DNA of 51,828 bases. Source: Cyanobacteria bacterium J06626_4 (lineage in GTDB: Bacteria > Cyanobacteriota > Cyanobacteriia > Phormidesmidales > Phormidesmidaceae). Position 1 is the first letter of the stretch. Each line of letters begins with the position of its first letter. The notes under the pieces are model-generated. The model was not told where the DNA came from, searched no databases, and worked only from the letters and a program-made list of their open reading frames with translations. Location of the stretch: positions 1 through 51,828 of the forward strand of contig JBCBJQ010000035.1 in assembly GCA_038523235.1 (NCBI GenBank), written 5' to 3'. Positions 15,339 to 23,688 of this stretch are shown in pieces. Position numbers and translations under genes: made by a program.

Positions 15339-16520
15339 TTATCCCTTGACGCACATCACCTGCTTGAGCGTAGCCACGACCTCAACCAGATCGGCCTGGT
15401 TGGCCATCACCTGCTCAATCGGCTTGTACGCACCCGGAATTTCATCCAGGACACCGGCATCTTTGCGGCACTCGACACCCGCCGTTTGCTGCACCAGATC
15501 ATCCAGCGTAAAGGCCTTCTTTGCCTTGGTGCGAGACATTTGACGACCCGCCCCGTGGGAGCAAGAGCAAAACGCCGCAGCAGCCCCCTTGCCCTTCACA
15601 ATGAAGGATTTCGCCCCCATTGAGCCGGGAATGATACCGTAGTCGTTTTTCTGCGCCCGCACGGCCCCCTTCCGAGTCACGTACACATCTTCGCCAAAAT
15701 GCACTTCGCGCTCGGCGTAGTTGTGGTGGCAGTTGACCTGCAGTTCTGGCTTAAAGGGCTTGCCACCCGCCAACTGCGTTTCGACCACCCGCTTAAACCG
15801 GGCCATCATGACCTCTCGATTGCGCAGGGCGTAGTTTTGCGCCCACTGCAGATCGCGCCAGTACGCCTCAAACTCCGGCGTGCCCTGCACAAAGTGCGAC
15901 AGATCCGGATCAGGCAGCTTCAGGCCCGCCAGCTTCGCCAGCGCTTTGGCTGACTCAATATGGCGCTGGGCCAGCATGTTGCCGATATGGCGGCTGCCAG
16001 AGTGCAGCATCAGCCAGACCTGGGCGTCGGTATCCACACACAACTCGATGAAATGGTTACCGCCGCCGAGGCTGCCCATCTGCTTTTGAGCTTTATCTTG
16101 GAGCTTTTGCACTTTAGGGTGCAGCTCCTTGAAGTCACTCCAGCCCTGCCAGTTGGTGACGTCTTTATCAACTTGCTGGTTTTGGTTAAAGCCAACAGGA
16201 ATCAGCTTTTCAACCTCGGTGCGAATCTGCTTGAGTTTGCCGTCGAGCTGATCGGCGTGATACGGGGTTTTGACGGCGCACATGCCGCAGCCAATATCGA
16301 CCCCCACCGCCGCTGGCACGATCGCTTCCTTCGTCGCCACCACCGAGCCGACCAGTGCCCCTTTACCCAAATGAACGTCGGGCATCAGGGCCACATGCTT
16401 GTGGACAAAAGGCAGCGAGGCCACATTTTGGGCCATCTTGGTTTCGTTAGCACCCAGCTCATGCCCCGCCCAAGACAGCACGGGCACCGCTGTTGATAGA
16501 TCTAATGGCATGTAAGGCAT
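15339..16520 (-). CDS. rtcB: RNA 2',3'-cyclic phosphate ligase RtcB
   Basis: MPDVHLGKG, VGVDIGCG, GGGNHFIE, HSGSR, HHNY, TRKGA, PGSMG, SHGAGR, DEIPGAYK. Confidence 0.97.
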   Translation of the reverse strand: MPYMPLDLSTAVPVLSWAGHELGANETKMAQNVASLPFVHKHVALMPDVHLGKGALVGSVVATKEAIVPAAVGVDIGCGMCAVKTPYHADQLDGKLKQIRTEVEKLIPVGFNQNQQVDKDVTNWQGWSDFKELHPKVQKLQDKAQKQMGSLGGGNHFIELCVDTDAQVWLMLHSGSRHIGNMLAQRHIESAKALAKLAGLKLPDPDLSHFVQGTPEFEAYWRDLQWAQNYALRNREVMMARFKRVVETQLAGGKPFKPELQVNCHHNYAEREVHFGEDVYVTRKGAVRAQKNDYGIIPGSMGAKSFIVKGKGAAAAFCSCSHGAGRQMSRTKAKKAFTLDDLVQQTAGVECRKDAGVLDEIPGAYKPIEQVMANQADLVEVVATLKQVMCVKG

Positions 16521-17130: not shown

Positions 17131-17589
17131 TTATGCCTCCACCAGATCCGTGGCCCAATTAAGCGCCTGAATCTGAGCGTCTAACTCACGATACTCGCGC
17201 GAAAGCTGGTCGATCTGGCGTTGCAGTTCAGCCACATTCACCGTGCTCACCAGCCGTAATTCCGATCGCATGTACCGCTCTTGCGAAATCGCTGCTGCCC
17301 CGATGAGGCTGTCATAGGCGGTGCGCTTGAGCCGTAGCGTATCTCGGGTGGCCAATACATCAGACAACACCCCAGCTTGAAACGGCGTAACCGAGTTGGT
17401 GCGATTAATTTGTTGAATCAACCGCGTCAGCTCGTCGGTGGTCGCTTCTAACTCTGCCAGCAATACTTGCGGATCTTCTGGCGGCTGCTCGCCTTCTTGC
17501 ACCCGAGCACTCCGCATCAGTCGCTGCCGCAGTTGAGCCACCCGCTTTTGGGCATCAGCTCGCAAAATCAAGGCTTCTGCCAACTTCAT
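17131..17589 (-). CDS. DIP1984-family coiled-coil protein
   Basis: 'MKLAEALILRAD...VQEGEQPPEDP...INRTN...IQALNW'; RBS AGGAGGTGA. Confidence 0.85.
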   Translation of the reverse strand: MKLAEALILRADAQKRVAQLRQRLMRSARVQEGEQPPEDPQVLLAELEATTDELTRLIQQINRTNSVTPFQAGVLSDVLATRDTLRLKRTAYDSLIGAAAISQERYMRSELRLVSTVNVAELQRQIDQLSREYRELDAQIQALNWATDLVEA

Positions 17590-17651
17590 CACTCTCACCT
17601 CCTGTTCGTAAATTTTGTATGGGGGAGCCGCATCGCGGCCAGTGCTAATCC

Positions 17652-17932
17652 CTAAAAGTAGTGGTCGCGCAGGCTGCCGTCGTATCGCCCGCTATTGCGA
17701 CAGCATCGCTTGAAAGCAACGTCCCGAACCGCAAGGACACAGGTCGTTGTTGCCGAGTTTTTCCTGCAGTTCTTTATCGCCGTGCACGATACGGACACCT
17801 CGTTTCACCGCAGTTTCAGATGGATAGCCACGACGCCGTTTGCTTGAGCGAACAAAAGCCAGCGGCGGTTTCGTCAAAGTCTGCCGAGAGATCTTCGAGG
17901 TTGATTTTGGCGTTGGGGTTAAAGCGTTTCAT
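17652..17932 (-). CDS. SEC-C zinc-binding protein encoded across three frames (two +1 shifts), ~92 aa
   Basis: RBS GGAGGTGA then ATG 17932; +1 at TTT-T (17857-17854); +1 at TTT-C (17715-17712) completes [18 protein letters not shown]. Confidence 0.7.
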
Positions 17933-17965
17933 GATTCTCACCTCCGGTTACATGGATAAGCGCAG

Positions 17966-18758
17966 TTACTTTGACTGCTGGGCTAACTGGTTCTTGATCA
18001 GCCGAATTTCCTTTTTATTGCACTGCTGTTTGCTCACCGCATAAACTTTGCGTCCTGCGATATATTCAGCAGTCTGGGCAGAGACCTGACCCTGCAAAAT
18101 ATCGGTAACCGGGTCGATGCAAATTGCTGGAAATTCAGCAAACGTCACCCGATACCAAATGCCCTTGAGTTGGCGATACTGATGATTAGCATCGATCGCT
18201 AAGACATCGGTCGGGGGAGTGGGTTTTGGCTTCCGACGTTTTTTCTCCACCAGACAAAGCAAGCCTGTTTCTGGATGGACGTAGAAGCGATCGTGATAAC
18301 TACTTACTAGGGGAGCAAAGCTGCCCCACTCTGGCTTTTCATATAGAACACCCTCAATGATTTCGGTGTGCCGAACCACGTCATCCCAGACATGACTGAG
18401 CACATGCTGTCCCGCCAAGGTGTTGGTATTCAACTGGCGGCACAGCTTGCTGTAAACGTCGTTCCAAGGTTGACCGACGTGCGATCGCAAAAACCGTCGC
18501 AGTGGCCCTAAATGATCAGACAAATACTTAGACTTGTCTCTCGGCTTAATCAAATACGGACTGAGTAAGCCATCCTCACTGGCCTCCTGGGTGAGTTTGT
18601 GCAAGCGCTTTTTGACACCCTTCAACTTTCGAGAACTCATCCGCATACCACTCCGAGGACGTTCAATGACAATTTCGCTCAAACGATGCTCGCTCATAGA
18701 TTTGACTGTGCATAAAGTTGGACTGCGATCGTTGGGTTGTGATGCGAAATGACGTCAT
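17966..18758 (-). CDS. Conserved basic hypothetical protein, probably initiated at 18758 with +1 shift at TTT-C
   Basis: 243-aa ORF from 18697 has no visible SD; SD-led ATG at 18758 joins it in the +1 frame without stops. Confidence 0.7.
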
Positions 18759-18818: not shown

Positions 18819-18919
18819 TGGGGTGACTGACGGGACTCTAACCCGCTAATACTGGTGTCACAAACCAGCGCCGCGATCGCTTTGGCTAGCCCCTCCGGGG
18901 CGGCTTCGCCAACAGTCAC
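18819..18919 (-). tRNA. tRNA-His(GTG) copy 2, interrupted by 24-nt insert (18889-18912)
   Basis: GTGACTG/CAGTCAC-C-CCA; CTGGT-TTGTGAC-ACCAG. Confidence 0.75.
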
Positions 18920-18921
18920 AG

Positions 18922-18995
18922 TGGATTCGGTGGGAGTTGAACCCACAACCTCCTGTGTGCAAGACAGGCGCTCTCCCAGTTAGAGCTACGAACCC
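18922..18995 (-). tRNA. tRNA-Ala(TGC)
   Basis: GGGTTCG/CGAATCC with G3.U70; loop CTTGCAC. Confidence 0.9.
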
Positions 18996-19000
18996 AAGAG

Positions 19001-19097
19001 CAGGCGTGGCAGGAGTTGTTCGCAAAGCGTCTCCGGAGGAGAAACCTACACAGGTCGATTTAGAAGACCGATGCCCTTTCCATTAGGCGACACGCCT
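19001..19097 (-). tRNA. tRNA-Arg(TCT), interrupted in T-loop (19019-19042)
   Basis: AGGCGTG/CACGCCT; loop CTTCTAA; GTAGG-TT[24 nt]CAACT-CCTGC. Confidence 0.8.
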
Positions 19098-19102
19098 ATA
19101 TC

Positions 19103-19177
19103 TGGTAGTCCTGGTAGGAATTGAACCTACAACCTCTCGTTTGTAAGACGCTTGCTCTACCGTTGAGCTACAGGACC
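19103..19177 (-). tRNA. tRNA-Val(TAC)
   Basis: Cloverleaf with CCA; loop CTTACAA; weak anticodon stem. Confidence 0.8.
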
Positions 19178-19182
19178 ACCCA

Positions 19183-19253
19183 AGCGAGTGATGGGAGTTG
19201 AACCCATGCGCTGAGACTGGCAGACTCAGATGCTACCGCTACATCACACCCGC
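19183..19253 (-). tRNA. tRNA-Gly(GCC)
   Basis: GCGGGTG/CACTCGC-T; loop CTGCCAG. Confidence 0.8.
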
Positions 19254-19259
19254 ATTGAT

Positions 19260-19334
19260 TGGAGCGAAAGACGAGATTTGCACTCGTGTCTCCTGGTTGG
19301 AAGCCAGGGATGCTAGCTGCTGCACTACTTTCGC
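19260..19334 (-). tRNA. tRNA-Gly(TCC)
   Basis: GCGAAAG/CTTTCGC-T-CCA; loop CTTCCAA; T-loop TGCAAAT. Confidence 0.85.
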
Positions 19335-19337
19335 AAA

Positions 19338-19412
19338 TGGGGCTGGTGACAGGAGTTGAACCTGCAACCGACTGTTTACAAAACAGTTGCTCTACCGTTG
19401 AGCCACACCAGC
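19338..19412 (-). tRNA. tRNA-Thr(TGT)
   Basis: GCTGGTG/CACCAGC-C-CCA; loop TTTGTAA. Confidence 0.9.
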
Positions 19413-19415
19413 TTG

Positions 19416-19492
19416 TGGACGCGGGGGTGAGAATTGCACTCACTGATTTGAAGGGTATGAACCTTCCGAGCCACTGTTGCTCCATCCCCGCA
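19416..19492 (-). tRNA. tRNA-Met(CAT), atypical
   Basis: TGCGGGG/CCCCGCG-T-CCA; GAAGG-TTCATAC-CCTTC. Confidence 0.7.
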
Positions 19493-19566
19493 TACCCCTG
19501 ACAGGAGTCGAACCTGCAACAAACTTGTTTTAAGCAAGCCATGTCTACCAGTTGCATCACAGGGGT
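19493..19566 (-). tRNA. tRNA-Leu(TAA), short variable loop, no intron
   Basis: ACCCCTG/CAGGGGT-A; loop CTTAAAA. Confidence 0.85.
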
Positions 19567-19578
19567 TAAGAACCTTAG

Positions 19579-19640
19579 TTTGACGATGCTAGATTTCAAA
19601 TTGTGCAAATCTAAAATTCAAAATCGTCAATCTAAAATCC
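19579..19640. repeat. STRR-type heptamer repeats (also 19717-19742)
   Basis: AAAATTC/AAAATCG/TCAATCT-like units between tRNA genes. Confidence 0.6.
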
Positions 19641-19642
19641 CA

Positions 19643-19715
19643 TGGGCTGTATAGGACTTGAACCTATGCACTGCCGCTTAAGAGGCGGCTGCTCTGCCAG
19701 CTGAGCTAACAACCC
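19643..19715 (-). tRNA. tRNA-Lys(CTT)
   Basis: GGGTTGT/ACAGCCC; loop CTCTTAA. Confidence 0.9.
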
Positions 19716-19748
19716 GTAAAATTGAAAATTCAAAATTTTCAATGCCAG

Positions 19749-19820
19749 TGGGTCGCCCAGGGGTTGAACCTGGATCTCTCCGCTTAAAAGGCGGCTGTAT
19801 ATCCGCTCTGCCAGCGACCC
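19749..19820 (-). tRNA. tRNA-Lys(TTT)
   Basis: GGGTCGC/GCGACCC; loop CTTTTAA; weak D-stem. Confidence 0.8.
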
Positions 19821-19827
19821 AGACAAG

Positions 19828-19903
19828 TGGTACACCGAGCAGGAATCGAACCTGCTATAACGCACTAATCAGGTGCGCGCGTCACCATTTTCGCCTTCGG
19901 TGC
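19828..19903 (-). tRNA. tRNA-Ile(GAT)
   Basis: GCACCGA/TCGGTGT-A-CCA; CGCAC-CTGATTA-GTGCG. Confidence 0.8.
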
Positions 19904-19919
19904 TTGAGCCTTCCCATCA

Positions 19920-20075
19920 ACTCCTTGACCCCAAGCAAGACTTCTGACCACTGAATGACATCCTGATTGGTACTCCTACTGAGAGTCGTATGTCCTTCAG
20001 ACAGATTGCGTCCACGCGTCAGTGTCTCCAAAGGAGAAACCCACACGTAGGCTATTTCTAAGGCAGCCGCCTCTG
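19920..20075 (-). pseudogene. Decayed duplicate of the tRNA-Leu(TAG)/tRNA-Pro(TGG) pair with 49-nt nested insertion
   Basis: Aligns by eye to 20229-20336; insert 19989-20037 sits in the Leu T-loop. Confidence 0.75.
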
Positions 20076-20104
20076 TAGACGGGCAGTCCACAGTTGCTTG
20101 TAAT

Positions 20105-20182
20105 TGGTGTGACCGACGAGAGTCGAACTCGTTAATACTGGTTTCACAAACCAGCCCCGCCACCACTTTGGGTTCGGTCACC
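20105..20182 (-). tRNA. tRNA-His(GTG)
   Basis: G-1, GTGACCG/CGGTCAC-A-CCA; loop TTGTGAA. Confidence 0.8.
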
Positions 20183-20199
20183 ATATATTTTGATGAGAA

Positions 20200-20275
20200 T
20201 GGTCGGGATGGTAGGATTCGAACCCACGACTCCTTGGCCCCAAACCAAGGCTTCTGACCACTGAATTACATCCCG
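20200..20275 (-). tRNA. tRNA-Pro(TGG)
   Basis: CGGGATG/CATCCCG-A-CCA; loop TTTGGGG. Confidence 0.88.
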
Positions 20276-20277
20276 AT

Positions 20278-20355
20278 TGGTGCTCCTGGTAGGAGTCGAA
20301 CCTACACATGAACTGTTTCTAAGACAGTCGCCTCTGCCAGTTGGGCTACAGGAGC
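20278..20355 (-). tRNA. tRNA-Leu(TAG), short variable loop
   Basis: GCTCCTG/CAGGAGC-A-CCA; loop CTTAGAA. Confidence 0.88.
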
Positions 20356-20404
20356 ATGAACAGGAGGATAGAGCGTGGCTAGGCCACAAGCTCATGCCCC
20401 CCGA

Positions 20405-20478
20405 CAGGGAAGGAAGGAATCGAACCCTCAAACATCTGATTCAAAGTCAGATCGCTTTGCCAATTTGCGTACTTCCCT
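20405..20478 (-). tRNA. tRNA-Gln(TTG)
   Basis: AGGGAAG/CTTCCCT; loop CTTTGAA. Confidence 0.88.
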
Positions 20479-20586
20479 ATATAACGCCGACCAAATCGCT
20501 GACTACACCGAGTAAAGTTGAAACCTTTGCCATAGAAGCGATCTGGCTCGCAGTCTGGTCCTAACTGGACTGGCGACTGCGATCAA

Positions 20587-20688
20587 TGGATGCCGAGGCT
20601 GGATTTGTTCGCGCAGCGTCTCCGTTAGGAGTTACCAGCATCTCCGTGATTCAGAGTCACAGTGACTTTCCAAGTTGTCCACTCGGCA
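20587..20688 (-). tRNA. tRNA-Gln(CTG), interrupted in T-loop (20608-20632)
   Basis: TGCCGAG/CTCGGCA-T-CCA; loop CTCTGAA; GCTGG-TA[25 nt]CAAAT-CCAGC. Confidence 0.8.
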
Positions 20689-20693
20689 ATGAA

Positions 20694-20768
<75 letters not shown>

Positions 20769-20773
20769 ATGTA

Positions 20774-20846
20774 TGGGAAGTGACAGGATCGAACTGTCAT
20801 CTCGCCGTCTTCAGCGGCACGTGAGCACCAGCTTCACCAACTTCCC
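20774..20846 (-). tRNA. tRNA-Phe(GAA) with G37
   Basis: GGGAAGT/ACTTCCC-A; TGCCG-CTGAAGA-CGGCG. Confidence 0.85.
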
Positions 20847-20849
20847 ATT

Positions 20850-20934
20850 TGGCGGAGAGTAGAGGAATCGAACCCCTAGCTGTTAACTACCCTGGTTTTC
20901 AAGACCAGTTGCCGACCATTCAGCGGTACCCTCC
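20850..20934 (-). tRNA. tRNA-Ser(TGA)
   Basis: GGAGGGT/ACTCTCC-G-CCA; loop CTTGAAA; long variable arm. Confidence 0.88.
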
Positions 20935-20940
20935 ATGAAA

Positions 20941-21043
20941 TGGCGAGAACGGAAGGATTTGTTCGCGTGAGCGTCTCCGTTAGGAGAAACCTTCAGTCTT
21001 CGGTTTCGTAGACCAAGATGTTTTCCAGTTACACCACGTTCTC
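20941..21043 (-). tRNA. tRNA-Arg(ACG), interrupted in T-loop (20962-20987)
   Basis: GAGAACG/CGTTCTC-G-CCA; loop CTACGAA; GAAGG-TT[26 nt]CAAAT-CCTTC. Confidence 0.8.
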
Positions 21044-21049
21044 ATCAGG

Positions 21050-21131
21050 CGGAGAGCAGTGGACTTGAACCACAGACGCCAATCCCATCTGTTTAGCAAA
21101 CAGCGCCGATCGCCTGATCGGTTTACTCTCC
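21050..21131 (-). tRNA. tRNA-Ser(GCT), possibly degenerate
   Basis: GGAGAGT/GCTCTCC-G; loop TTGCTAA; poorly paired variable arm. Confidence 0.7.
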
Positions 21132-21149
21132 ATAAATTTAGACAACATC

Positions 21150-21310
21150 AGTACGGGATAAGAGAGAGCCTACCTGCCTAGTCGATGTTCCCCTCTCGGG
21201 AGGGGTTAGGGGTGGATTTCCGGCTCATTGCCAAGGGGTTGACCCACCCCGGCCTATGGCCACCCCTCCCATGGAGGGGATATTTCAGCCAGGTTTCTTT
21301 AACCCATACT
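21150..21310. mobile_element. MITE-like palindromic repeat inserted in the tRNA array
   Basis: Imperfect outer inverted repeat; CCCCTCTCGGGAGGGG-TTAGGGGTGG...CCACCCC...CCCCTCCCATGGAGGGG. Confidence 0.6.
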
Positions 21311-21323
21311 CAGGTTAGACAGG

Positions 21324-21406
21324 TGGGCAGGGAGGGACTCGAACCCCCAACGGTCAGGGACGACTGGTTTACAATCAGCCTGCTTCAGCCATTTGCATAC
21401 CTACCC
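21324..21406 (-). tRNA. tRNA-Tyr(GTA)
   Basis: GGGTAGG/CCTGCCC-A; loop TTGTAAA; long variable region. Confidence 0.85.
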
Positions 21407-21409
21407 ATT

Positions 21410-21486
21410 TGGCAGTGCTGATGGGAGTTGAACCCACAAACATCGACTTGAAAGATCGACGGCTTTACCAATTTGCCTACAGCACC
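21410..21486 (-). tRNA. tRNA-Glu(TTC)
   Basis: GGTGCTG/CAGCACT-G-CCA; loop CTTTCAA. Confidence 0.88.
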
Positions 21487-21515
21487 GAGAAATTTCTACG
21501 ACGTCCGCCGTAGAA

Positions 21516-21586
21516 CGCACAGACCAGGATTTGAACCCGGACAAAAGGTTTTGGAGACCTTTGTGCTGCCGTTACACCATCTGTGC
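21516..21586 (-). tRNA. tRNA-Trp(CCA)
   Basis: GCACAGA/TCTGTGC-G; AAGGT-CTCCAAA-ACCTT. Confidence 0.88.
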
Positions 21587-21661
21587 TGGTCGCAGCGGCG
21601 GGAATCGACCCCGCACCTGTCGGCTTATGAGGCCGCAGCTCTACCGTTAAGCTACGCTGCA
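21587..21661 (-). tRNA. tRNA-Met or Ile2 (CAT)
   Basis: TGCAGCG/CGCTGCG-A-CCA; loop CTCATAA. Confidence 0.8.
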
Positions 21662-21662
21662 G

Positions 21663-21738
21663 TGGACTCCAGGGCGGGAGTTGCACCCGCGATTGCTGGT
21701 TTTGCAGACCAGCGCCTTGCTAACTTGGCTACCTGGAG
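21663..21738 (-). tRNA. tRNA-Cys(GCA)
   Basis: CTCCAGG/CCTGGAG-T-CCA (U73); loop CTGCAAA. Confidence 0.88.
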
Positions 21739-21741
21739 ATT

Positions 21742-21824
21742 TGGTGGAGACGTGGAGAATTGAACTCCAGTCCTGCAGCCGTCCATTTGTCGGTTTCGGA
21801 GCAGTCAACTCCAGTTGCGTCCCC
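21742..21824 (-). ncRNA. Minimal tmRNA-like RNA (tRNA-like domain only)
   Basis: GGGGACG/CGTCTCC-A-CCA with G3.U70; D-region CAACTGGAGTTGAC; GGAC linker before T-arm; no anticodon arm or tag ORF. Confidence 0.7.
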
Positions 21825-21864
21825 ACGCACGAGGATGACCTGCTTCTGAGCAACATCCTCAACA

Positions 21865-21941
21865 TGGAAGCCTCGACGGGAGTTGCACCCGCTGCTCTGT
21901 GACTGAGAATCACAGCGACTTATCTATTCGTCCACGAGGCT
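21865..21941 (-). tRNA. tRNA-Glu(CTC)
   Basis: AGCCTCG/CGAGGCT-T-CCA; loop TTCTCAG. Confidence 0.75.
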
Positions 21942-21946
21942 ATCAA

Positions 21947-22135
21947 TAGCGGTGGCGGGACTTGAACCCGCGAGTTACCCGGCACCTTAAAACGCGCTTC
22001 CCCAACCCACATCTCTGCTTCGTCAGGTGCACTGCAAATTCGGCGATCCGGCTGCCCCTTACGTGTAATACCTGGGGGGCTATCCTCCAGCTGGTTCAAC
22101 GTTTGCTGGCGCTCTACCTCCTGAGCTACACCGCT
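21947..22135 (-). ncRNA. 189-nt tRNA-like RNA with large multibranched domain replacing the anticodon loop
   Basis: Perfect acceptor AGCGGTG/CACCGCT, D-arm GCTC/GAGC, T-arm GCGGG-TTCAAGT-CCCGC. Confidence 0.75.
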
Positions 22136-22138
22136 ATA

Positions 22139-22213
22139 CGGGAATGATGGGATTTGAACCCACGATCGCTCGTTCGACAAACGAGTGCTTTGACCGGACT
22201 AAGCTACATCCCC
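22139..22213 (-). tRNA. tRNA-Asp(GTC), first gene of array
   Basis: GGGGATG/CATTCCC-G; CTCGT-TTGTCGA-ACGAG. Confidence 0.9.
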
Positions 22214-22285
22214 AAGGTGGCAAATATTTAGTTTTCAAGGTTCTAAGGGCAGATTGTCAGCGCTGGGTAAGAGCGTGAAATCTTT

Positions 22286-22323
22286 ATACTACAAATGTAG
22301 TATACATACTACAAAAATGTCAA
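22286..22323 (-). promoter_or_regulatory. Array promoter overlapped by TGTAGTAT boxes (putative TrcR-type operator)
   Basis: Minus strand TTGACA-TTTT-TGTAGTAT-GT-ATACTACA-TT-TGTAGTAT. Confidence 0.75.
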
Positions 22324-22401: not shown

Positions 22402-22782
22402 TCAAGCGGAAACCGGAGGCTCGCTGAGCTGCCACAGTCGATAGATGAGTGATTCGGCCCGCTCACCAATTGCCGCTAAAAACATCCCCTCGTGAGCATC
22501 GGGGTTGGCGGCAATCCAGCTGCCGCTGAGGCTGATTTCGACAAACTGGTCGTCGACAGGCAGCACTGCGGCACCGCGATCGGGCTCAGCTTGTAGTACG
22601 GTTTGTAACTGACCCAGCTCAGCAATTTGAGTGGGTAGCAAAAAGCCAGCGTGGCCCGGTTCTACATGCAAGGTCTGGGCCATGCCCAGCGTCAGCAGTA
22701 CGTGCTGAGCAATTACCCGCTCGGGAGCAGCCATGAGCCACTCCATGTAGAGTCCAATTTCGGTGTAGTTCAGCTTCAACAT
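22402..22782 (-). CDS. alr0857-like cyanobacterial protein
   Basis: 'MLKLNYTEIGLYME...VEISLSGSWIA...EGMF'; RBS GGAGG; follows the HNH gene. Confidence 0.75.
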   Translation of the reverse strand: MLKLNYTEIGLYMEWLMAAPERVIAQHVLLTLGMAQTLHVEPGHAGFLLPTQIAELGQLQTVLQAEPDRGAAVLPVDDQFVEISLSGSWIAANPDAHEGMFLAAIGERAESLIYRLWQLSEPPVSA

Positions 22783-22807
22783 GGGTAAGACCTCCGAGAA
22801 TGACAAC

Positions 22808-23335
22808 TTAGTCAGGGGGATGTTCGGTCCAAAACTGTTCGGCAAAGGCCATGACCGGGTGCATGGGGGCTTTGGGTTTGGTTTTGAGGGTCAGATTGGC
22901 CGTCGGTAACAGGCGATCGCCCTTGGCGCTATTGCACGGGGCGCAGGCTGTGACGACGTTGTCCCAACTGTGGGAGCCGCCCTTAGAACGGGGTATGACG
23001 TGGTCAATGGTGAGCTGTTTGGAGCTGCCGCAATACTGGCAACGGTGCTGATCCCGGCGAAAGACTTCCCGGCGCGTCACTGGGGGCACTTTCCAATGCC
23101 GCTCACGATGGCCGCCCACCAAGCGAATGTGTTCTGACACCTGCAGGACGAGGCTGGGCGATCGCACCTCCCACTGTTGAGTAGTGCCAAACTCCAGAGC
23201 CTCAGCCCGTTCGGTCACCAGCAACACGACGGCTCGCTTTAAGGTGATCCGCGCCAGGGGCAGGTAGTTTTTGGAAAACACCACCACCGGATTTTTGAAC
23301 CGGGAGAGCGTTTGACTGGCTTGTTGTGTAGGCAT
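22808..23335 (-). CDS. HNH endonuclease (small McrA-like)
   Basis: 'VFRRDQHRCQYCG...LTIDHVIPRSKGGSHSWDNVVTACAPCNSAKG'; RBS GAGG before ATG 23335. Confidence 0.93.
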   Translation of the reverse strand: MPTQQASQTLSRFKNPVVVFSKNYLPLARITLKRAVVLLVTERAEALEFGTTQQWEVRSPSLVLQVSEHIRLVGGHRERHWKVPPVTRREVFRRDQHRCQYCGSSKQLTIDHVIPRSKGGSHSWDNVVTACAPCNSAKGDRLLPTANLTLKTKPKAPMHPVMAFAEQFWTEHPPD

Positions 23336-23348
23336 CGCTAAATTCCTC

Positions 23349-23389
23349 AAAAAAATAACCCCCGCTGCTGATAGTCAGTAGCGGGGGTT
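23349..23389 (-). terminator. Intrinsic terminator abutting the HNH RBS
   Basis: AACCCCCGCTACTGA-CTA-TCAGCAGCGGGGGTT-ATTTTTTT. Confidence 0.8.
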
Positions 23390-23670: not shown

Positions 23671-23688
23671 ATACTACACATGTAGTAT
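23671..23688. promoter_or_regulatory. Second ATACTACA-N2-TGTAGTAT operator
   Basis: Same palindrome as 22286-22303, within a plausible TGGACA-N17-TAGTAT promoter on the minus strand. Confidence 0.75.

Follow-up and report, generated by a model that had tools for sequence, protein, structure and literature searches.

Long tRNA arrays of cyanobacteria (L-arrays, or trn operons) are induced by translational stress and repressed by TrcR (accessible parts of PMC8421152 and PMC10272220), and the TGTAGTAT box motif has been described as the TrcR operator (accessible part of PMC10272220). As far as the same parts of the two papers describe it, the trn operon of Anabaena PCC 7120 contains tRNAs and three pseudogenes, and no 189-nt RNA of the kind reported here is named. 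Phage tRNA clusters and operons with RtcB or Ro60 contain tRNA-like RNAs of unknown role. YrlA (RF02553) is a tRNA mimic with a conserved elbow and a covarying Levitt pair, encoded beside Ro60 and RtcB; its order is permuted, the T arm preceding the D arm, its acceptor loop is closed and it lacks an anticodon loop (accessible parts of PMC4201824 and bioRxiv 10.1101/312249). The accessible part of PMC7824862 mentions only the tRNA-like partner of Ro. The band-7-associated b7a-tRNA (Burroughs and Aravind 2016), a predicted tRNA-like RNA beside band-7 and RtcB genes, strongly resembles authentic tRNA according to the accessible part of bioRxiv 10.1101/312249. RNA C and RNA D of phage T4 (NC_000866.4) and the stable RNAs of phage T5 (NC_005859.1) are stable RNAs of phage tRNA clusters whose function is unknown, and tmRNA (RF00023) has tRNA-like ends around a pseudoknotted insert. 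Here we describe a 189-nt RNA gene in a cyanobacterial L-array and the widespread, apparently uncatalogued family of tRNA-shaped RNAs to which it belongs, found in phages, cyanobacteria, metagenomes, Streptomyces plasmids and one Bacteroidota genome.

A 189-nt RNA gene inside a cyanobacterial tRNA array

We analysed a contig of Cyanobacteria bacterium J06626_4 over its whole stretch of 51,828 nt (hereafter, the window). It has the features of a cyanobacterial L-array, namely a long tRNA array, an HNH gene, rtcB and a TGTAGTAT operator, and corresponds in kind to the TrcR-controlled trn operon of Anabaena PCC 7120 in the accessible accounts (PMC8421152, PMC10272220), which also has the upstream HNH gene, rtcB and TGTAGTAT boxes. 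Five TGTAGTAT boxes were observed in the window against 0.37 expected.

15339..16520, minus strand: rtcB RNA ligase gene, downstream of the array (PF01139, E 7e-127)
18830..22214, minus strand: long tRNA array (L-array / trn operon) with 24 genes called by ARAGORN and further degenerate ones
21865..21941, minus strand: tRNA-Glu(CUC)-like gene called by ARAGORN, 5 nt downstream of the 189-nt gene
21947..22135, minus strand: tRNA-framed non-coding RNA gene of 189 nt (RNA position n is window position 22136-n)
22138..22214, minus strand: tRNA-Asp(GUC), first gene of the array, 2 nt upstream of the 189-nt gene
22286..22323, minus strand: sigma70-type array promoter, TTGACA at 22318-22323, three TGTAGTAT boxes (TrcR-type operator)
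22808..23350, minus strand: upstream HNH endonuclease gene (PF01844), with its own TGTAGTAT pair at 23671-23688

On the minus strand from 22135 to 21947, about 115 extra nucleotides are framed by an acceptor stem of 7 bp, a D stem of 4 bp and a T stem of 5 bp whose loop is canonical; the discriminator is A189 and CCA is not encoded. The initial annotation, a reading of the window's letters that preceded this analysis, had the canonical, paired acceptor, D and T arms right, as well as the gene's place as the second behind the promoter. ARAGORN called 24 tRNAs elsewhere in the window and none at 21947..22135. In Rfam, where Y RNAs, ribozymes and group I introns were sought, no family covers the gene, either at the gathering threshold or with E values up to 10 admitted. 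A YrlA match at 22109-22169 was rejected: it spans the T arm of tRNA-Asp and the D arm of the 189-nt gene, a known tandem-tRNA artefact. Gene and insert are present once in the genome, and the insert is not a dispersed repeat. The folding energy of the RNA is unexceptional against shuffles (z -1.26), and the case for a functional RNA stands on conservation and covariation.

Other parts of the array also stand out. A DUF6847 gene and two genes without Pfam match flank it on the same strand (17131-18697 and 22402-22845, minus) and may be co-regulated. An 83-nt gene at 21742-21824 (minus) matches tmRNA (Rfam, 52 bits) in its tRNA-like domain alone, with G3.U70, encoded CCA and no tag region; such a tagless, mini-tmRNA-like gene is kept in seven other array loci (L005, L011, L062, L068, L075, L076 and L084), and the genome also has a separate full tmRNA. 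The inter-tRNA stretches 20480-20584 and 21135-21284 (minus) fold better than 200 of 200 shuffles (z -4.35 and -3.94). A palindromic repeat of about 25 nt lies in the T loops of several array tRNAs (19001-19097, 20585-20690 and 20944-21043, minus) and, in close strains, in that of the 189-nt RNA as well; its motif has 19 copies in the genome, 3 of them in the array.

The insert is a variable-arm domain that pairs with the anticodon-like loop

A domain of about 110 nt sits in the variable arm of the RNA, and its 3' CGUUU pairs with the loop of an anticodon-like hairpin as a pseudoknot. The fold of this copy is composed of the following elements:

22129..22135, minus strand: 5' strand of the acceptor stem, pairing with 21948-21954; 100% paired in the cyanobacterial copies
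22111..22126, minus strand: D arm, 4-bp stem, with U8, A14, G18 and G19
22087..22109, minus strand: anticodon-like hairpin, 5-bp stem (27-31/45-49), 13-nt loop, no U33; 3 compensatory pairs
22100..22104, minus strand: 5' strand of the pseudoknot (loop positions 32-36, AAACG), pairing with 21990-21994; compensatory changes in relatives
22054..22080, minus strand: optional variable-region hairpin V1 (56-60/78-82); 3 compensatory pairs
21979..22051, minus strand: variable-arm domain, closing helix 85-94/150-157; 93.8% paired, 4 compensatory pairs
22026..22037, minus strand: 5' half of the near-invariant core (UUGCRGANGCACC in the family; one nucleotide shorter here)
22009..22018, minus strand: GNRA-capped hairpin at the tip of the core stem; 88% paired in the cyanobacterial copies
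21990..22002, minus strand: 3' half of the core, GGGAAGCGCGUUU, holding the 3' strand of the pseudoknot (21990-21994, RNA positions 142-146)
21955..21971, minus strand: T arm, intact here, interrupted by a repeat of about 25 nt in close strains

This fold departs from the initial annotation, which had put the insert in place of the anticodon loop, at the end of a long-range anticodon stem (CCAGCA/UGCCGG, positions 27-32/152-157). That stem contains an A.C mismatch, pairs in only 55.6% of cells, fails at pair 29 in all 12 cyanobacterial copies (0/12 paired) and would cost 16 kcal/mol (-55.1 against -71.4). The local hairpin 27-31/45-49 is paired in 100% of cells, with 3 compensatory pairs, in the same 12 copies. 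As the local hairpin pairs and covaries while the long-range stem fails, the insert replaces the variable loop and not the anticodon loop. The AACG/CGUU pairing of the initial annotation is real; what it forms is the pseudoknot, not an extension of the stem. The stems drawn there were rejected on covariation counts. As had been noted, a 7-nt anticodon loop cannot be reconstructed.

Across the 12 cyanobacterial copies, the corrected structure had 97.3% of cells paired and 16 compensatory pairs; because these sequences form two clades, the compensatory counts amount to few independent events. None of 500 shuffles did as well, and slid controls were 34-49% paired. Close strains supply paired changes: C57U/G81A in V1 in assembly X15, and C166U/G180A in the T stem in runs X3, X4, X11 and X15. 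V1 is missing from compact phage members, and RNAalifold on 11 compact members predicted the same closing helix of the variable-arm domain. We hold with high confidence that the RNA is built as a tRNA frame with a core in its variable arm and an anticodon loop locked by a pseudoknot.

The RNA belongs to a widespread family

A pattern scan of a genome collection gave 33 loci, of which 10 were true homologues, all titled cyanobacteria. Six lie between tRNA-Asp and tRNA-Glu(CUC); of the other four, one comes after tRNA-Asp in an array that was called only in part, another belongs to a collapsed array and two are orphans. An orphan copy without nearby tRNA was also found in three of 89 genomes of another family. 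A TrcR-like box seen by eye upstream of orphan copies was too degenerate to claim. At locus L053, nearly the whole array is gone, yet the RNA and rtcB remain behind the promoter. The initial annotation had raised the possibility of a dispersed repeat absent from orthologous arrays: the insert is single-copy and occupies the same slot in other arrays, although no copy was found in the arrays of nine other cyanobacterial genomes.

Relaxed patterns detected distant members in phage contigs and metagenomes, the metagenome figures here and below being counts among the matches listed. There were at least 269 core matches (42 without a complete T arm and 3' end in the available DNA, 8 without an acceptor partner), which gave at least 161 distinct sequences; 157 were kept (98 metagenome, 49 viral and 10 genome), and 112 of these, 147-266 nt long, served as representatives. 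Left out were L157, which is tmRNA, four of 161 rows that scored low and four of 116 that were mis-started. When we used a core pattern without any tRNA element, a T arm followed in 111 of 113 metagenome matches listed that had 110 nt of downstream DNA (7 more end too early to judge), compared with 162 of 5650 shuffles. A covariance model built from 11 compact phage members scored two orphan cyanobacterial copies at 75.6 and 73.3 bits and the 189-nt gene at 51.6 bits, and the tRNAs searched at 41.8 bits or less.

Unannotated members are present in 13 records of Streptomyces phages and in six Streptomyces plasmids. In Streptomyces phage Alone3 the gene is again located between tRNA-Asp and tRNA-Glu(CUC), and the family matches in Alone3, Comrade and Kela lie under no annotated RNA gene. 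The family thus persists in phages whose hosts are unrelated, in Streptomyces megaplasmids, in cyanobacteria and in Bacteroidota, and its compact members of about 150 nt in cultured Streptomyces phages make structure and function directly testable. Direct BLAST of the 189-nt element against phage and plasmid collections gave no match, and with two other members as queries the matches were limited to Streptomyces phages or to short T-arm stretches. Early strict patterns yielded nothing or chance matches in viral contigs and, on 401 genomes, only the genome of origin, the pattern being too strict. ARAGORN calls overlap 7 of the 112 members. In one phage subfamily (L217, L259, L276, L296, L318, L360 and L392), the core is kept without a D stem and the ends are mostly of the G3.U70, tmRNA-like type.

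A conserved tRNA frame, a near-invariant core and a locked anticodon loop

The family keeps the canonical frame of tRNA (RF00005): a 7-bp acceptor, D and T arms and the elbow tertiary pairs. All seven acceptor pairs covary in 40 family members, in whose selection the acceptor stem was partly used, and the D and T stems covary across the 112 representatives. In these, the 15:48 Levitt pair is A-U in 65 and G-C in 19, and bases of tertiary contacts are kept (U8 in 96, A14 in 99, G18 in 107). The acceptor sequence is free, and no aminoacylation identity is shared across the family. Among 116 members, the discriminator is A in 90 and G in 20, and CCA is encoded in 26; G3.U70 occurs in 19 of 112 members, 18 of 112 having it together with A73.

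A canonical 7-nt loop with U33 and a free anticodon is missing; the loop of this copy has 13 nt and is paired to the core. A local anticodon-like stem of at least 4 bp was present in 90 of the 104 members with a D stem, compared with 35% in shuffles. Positions 32-33 are AA in 93 of the 104 and U33 occurs in none, with loops of 5-35 nt. The core reads UUGCRGANGCACC, a stem of 20-55 nt and then GGGAAGCRCGUUU, an invariance that is partly imposed by the search patterns. Two core pairs covary: 110:134 is C-G in 151, U-A in 4, G-C in 1 and mismatched in 1 of 157 members, and the pair three steps outside it is A-U in 68, G-C in 17 and U-A in 13 of 112. One near-invariant core position (A in 109 of 112) is missing from the 189-nt copy. 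The idea of a tRNA scaffold that presents a functional RNA domain is supported by a frame that covaries, including the Levitt pair, and by a core near-invariant in more than 100 diverse relatives.

The five pseudoknot pairs hold in 92, 101, 101, 78 and 98 of 104 members, counts that were anchored, with the anchor slipped in a few rows. Pairs were swapped in several lineages (A-U to C-G, A-U to G-C and C-G to U-A), and the fourth pair is an A.A mismatch in 20 members. In a MAFFT alignment of 40 members, the hairpin paired in 47% and the pseudoknot in 72%; because the anticodon region was misaligned there, these counts are understated, and we relied on the anchored ones. Since the core folds onto the RNA's own anticodon loop, the locked RNA probably cannot decode. 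The UUGC of the core is a candidate third strand of a major-groove triplex on the pseudoknot helix. When viral contigs were scanned for cores in which C replaces the second U of UUGC, one of 70 matches was a real member, with the matching G34-C pair; this single event is suggestive only, and of the three of 157 members with a G34-C pair, two keep U in the putative third strand. A helix enclosing the core was found in 81 of 104 members against a high background (45% in shuffles). Evidence for a contact between a GNRA loop and a receptor within the domain is weak (18/33 vs 22/71), and we do not claim one. Resemblances to the 23S L11-binding domain, the c-di-GMP-I and TPP riboswitches and T-box stem I are leads only, none of them backed by Rfam.

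Comparison with described tRNA-like RNAs

The 189-nt RNA is not YrlA, tmRNA, a group I intron or one of the T4/T5 stable RNAs. YrlA is often the direct neighbour of the family RNA, which differs from it in its normal arm order, its free 7-bp acceptor end and its anticodon loop paired to the core. Like tmRNA, the family has tRNA-like ends around a pseudoknotted insert, with G3.U70 in a minority and no D stem in seven members. Unlike tmRNA, most members possess both a complete D arm and an anticodon-like arm, and a tag frame and a conserved alanine identity are missing. The 189-nt gene has C3-G70 and receives no tmRNA call from ARAGORN, and tag-like peptide endings were found in 5 of 112 members. 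T4 RNA C has acceptor- and T-arm-like ends flanking an insert, as has the family RNA; the core is absent from all nine T4/T5 stable RNAs, and neither the core HMM nor the covariance model finds them. No such domain is described in the accessible part of PMC5389517 on irregular tRNAs, and we found no description of the family in the literature searched, whose subscription papers and supplements could contain one. The near-invariant core and the self-locked anticodon loop set the family apart from the tRNA-like RNAs compared.

Family members often neighbour tRNAs and sometimes RNA repair genes

Among 59 representatives with full flanks, 46 have a same-strand tRNA within 1 kb. Pfam scans of 106 and 85 selected neighbouring ORFs repeatedly returned RtcB, Ro60/TROVE, band-7, WYL, RlaP and Rnl1. 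Of 102 member loci that are at least 2.5 kb long, 23 carry a gene for RtcB, Ro60, band-7, WYL, RlaP or Rnl1, often adjacent to the RNA; the other 79 have no repair gene in the available flank. RtcB lies 9 nt from the RNA at L354 and L396, and Ro60 47-140 nt away at L400, L145 and L345. In one subfamily, the operon order is WYL (divergent), family RNA, YrlA-like RNA, band-7 and RtcB. In viral loci, a repair-type gene occurs near 8 of 49 members and in 1 of 48 tRNA-containing controls (P 0.03), in a test with query proteins taken from member loci, a loose family filter and non-independent loci. Clustering of 401 neighbouring ORFs revealed no conserved protein partner, and Ro60 (two queries), band-7 and WYL had no match in the J06626_4 genome. 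Overall, the neighbourhoods support a possible link of the family RNA to RtcB-type RNA repair. The initial proposal of a substrate for RtcB and the nuclease is not supported in the form of a spliced tRNA, because removal of the insert leaves no canonical anticodon arm (U33 in 0/104).

The subfamily in WYL/band-7/RtcB operons recalls b7a-tRNA as sketched in the accessible part of bioRxiv 10.1101/312249. We surveyed 351 genomes of Bacteroidota, 12 of which have the band-7 family; of 16 pattern matches, the single real RNA member adjoins one of these genes. Within flanks of 1.5 kb, the family RNA thus accompanies 1 of 12 band-7 loci, and a shorter YrlA-like RNA 10 of 12, so that the routine band-7/RtcB companionship of b7a-tRNA was not observed. 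The test, in one phylum and with b7a-tRNA compared by its brief description, argues against identity with b7a-tRNA, which is the main risk to novelty.

Some loci hold further unannotated elements. In WYL-headed operons (L361:2900-3620, L338, L368 and L376), a row of several uncatalogued structured RNAs lies between the family RNA and band-7. An unannotated protein family recurs near the RNA at L154:3259-3945, L165, L190, L328 and others, in three cases no more than about 110 nt away. About 3.5 kb from another family member, L275:7620-8053 gives a partial match to GOLLD (73.7 bits).

Possible functions of the family RNA

As a working model, held at somewhat less than even probability and drawn from genomic context and covariation, the RNA may be an anticodon-locked, processed tRNA mimic of an RNA-damage or translation-stress response. 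It would be co-transcribed with the array when TrcR-type repression is lifted, as its position and the Anabaena trn operon suggest. tRNA-processing enzymes would then excise it like its neighbours and add CCA, for which the conserved frame speaks. As covariation shows, the RNA adopts a full tRNA fold with an intact elbow, in which a variable-region helix returns the core alongside the anticodon arm and a core strand base-pairs with the anticodon loop. The UUGC linker might dock on the pseudoknot helix as a triplex, given the one supporting event. The product has a tRNA-like elbow and acceptor end, with no single amino-acid identity and no free anticodon. Its neighbours suggest that it could serve, in the manner of YrlA, as a stable partner of tRNA-cutting or tRNA-repairing proteins, or as their scaffold or decoy; RtcB, Ro60, band-7, RlaP and anticodon nucleases are such proteins. 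Against such a mimic, no single protein partner recurs across loci; against a decoy in particular, so invariant a core is not obviously needed. If confirmed, the role would provide an RNA component for tRNA repair and for counter-defence against tRNases, or a new ribozyme or aptamer fold.

It is also possible, if doubtful, that the family is a previously unrecognised functional RNA class, in which a tRNA chassis has its anticodon loop recruited into a pseudoknot-triplex active site or pocket. It might then be catalytic, soak up a signal or inhibit anticodon nucleases without being cleavable itself, and phages, plasmids and RNA-repair operons would be using an RNA weapon in conflicts over tRNA damage. 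A slightly less probable reading takes the core itself to be a ribozyme or an aptamer that binds a ligand, such as a nucleotide signal for which it would be a sponge, and the tRNA frame to provide excision, stability and the loop strand of the pocket. Invariant unpaired nucleotides gather at one junction that adjoins the pseudoknot and the candidate triplex, whereas peripheral helix lengths vary freely; acceptor identity is not conserved, the gene is an orphan without tRNA neighbours in three genomes and the seven members without a D stem still have the core. However, most members keep the elbow and the Levitt pair, the invariance of the core is partly a product of the search patterns, and Rfam offers no ribozyme or riboswitch match, whether in the array (E up to 10) or in 12 member loci (E up to 0.5).

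We regard it as unlikely, in a reading that overlaps with the others, that the family is functional while this copy is decaying as the passenger of a mobile array. The copy is short of one core nucleotide, most cyanobacterial arrays examined lack the gene, repeats are inserted in the T loop in all four close-strain runs examined (X3, X4, X11 and X15) and at L083, and X11 contigs hold close-strain copies with internal deletions. Yet the T loop of the J06626_4 copy is intact, the RNA survives at L053 amid decayed flanking tRNAs, and the 16 compensatory pairs within the clade and the paired changes in X15 are at odds with decay.

Still less probable is a ribosome ligand whose self-paired ACG/CGU helix imitates a codon-anticodon pair, so as to enter stalled or idle ribosomes without mRNA. 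Pseudoknot I of the dicistrovirus IRES imitates a codon-anticodon pair, and such a ligand would suit a gene of a translation-stress operon and of phage tRNA clusters that has the full determinants of the L-shape, with CCA encoded in 26 of 116 and G3.U70 with A73 in 18 of 112 members. An anticodon loop with 5-35 nt on its 3' side and a variable region of about 60-170 nt fit poorly into ribosomal tRNA sites, though, charging identity is not conserved and tag-like endings are rare (5/112).

Finally, an intron-bearing pre-tRNA, self-spliced or cut by a nuclease and joined by RtcB into a tRNA of about 75 nt, is very improbable even with RtcB and HNH genes near and insertion points that resemble a class I variable loop, because there is no U33 and no 7-nt loop to restore: the insert lies in the variable region, and its removal leaves an 8-13-nt loop without U33 (0/104). 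In line with the initial annotation, which had set a group I intron aside, Rfam gave no group I match, whether the gathering threshold was applied or E values up to 10 were allowed. Only 7 of 104 members have a stem that closes beside the T arm with canonical geometry, and the domain pairs with what would be an exon. The two contigs that skip the insert have also lost the D and anticodon arms, entirely or for the most part, and carry other letters.
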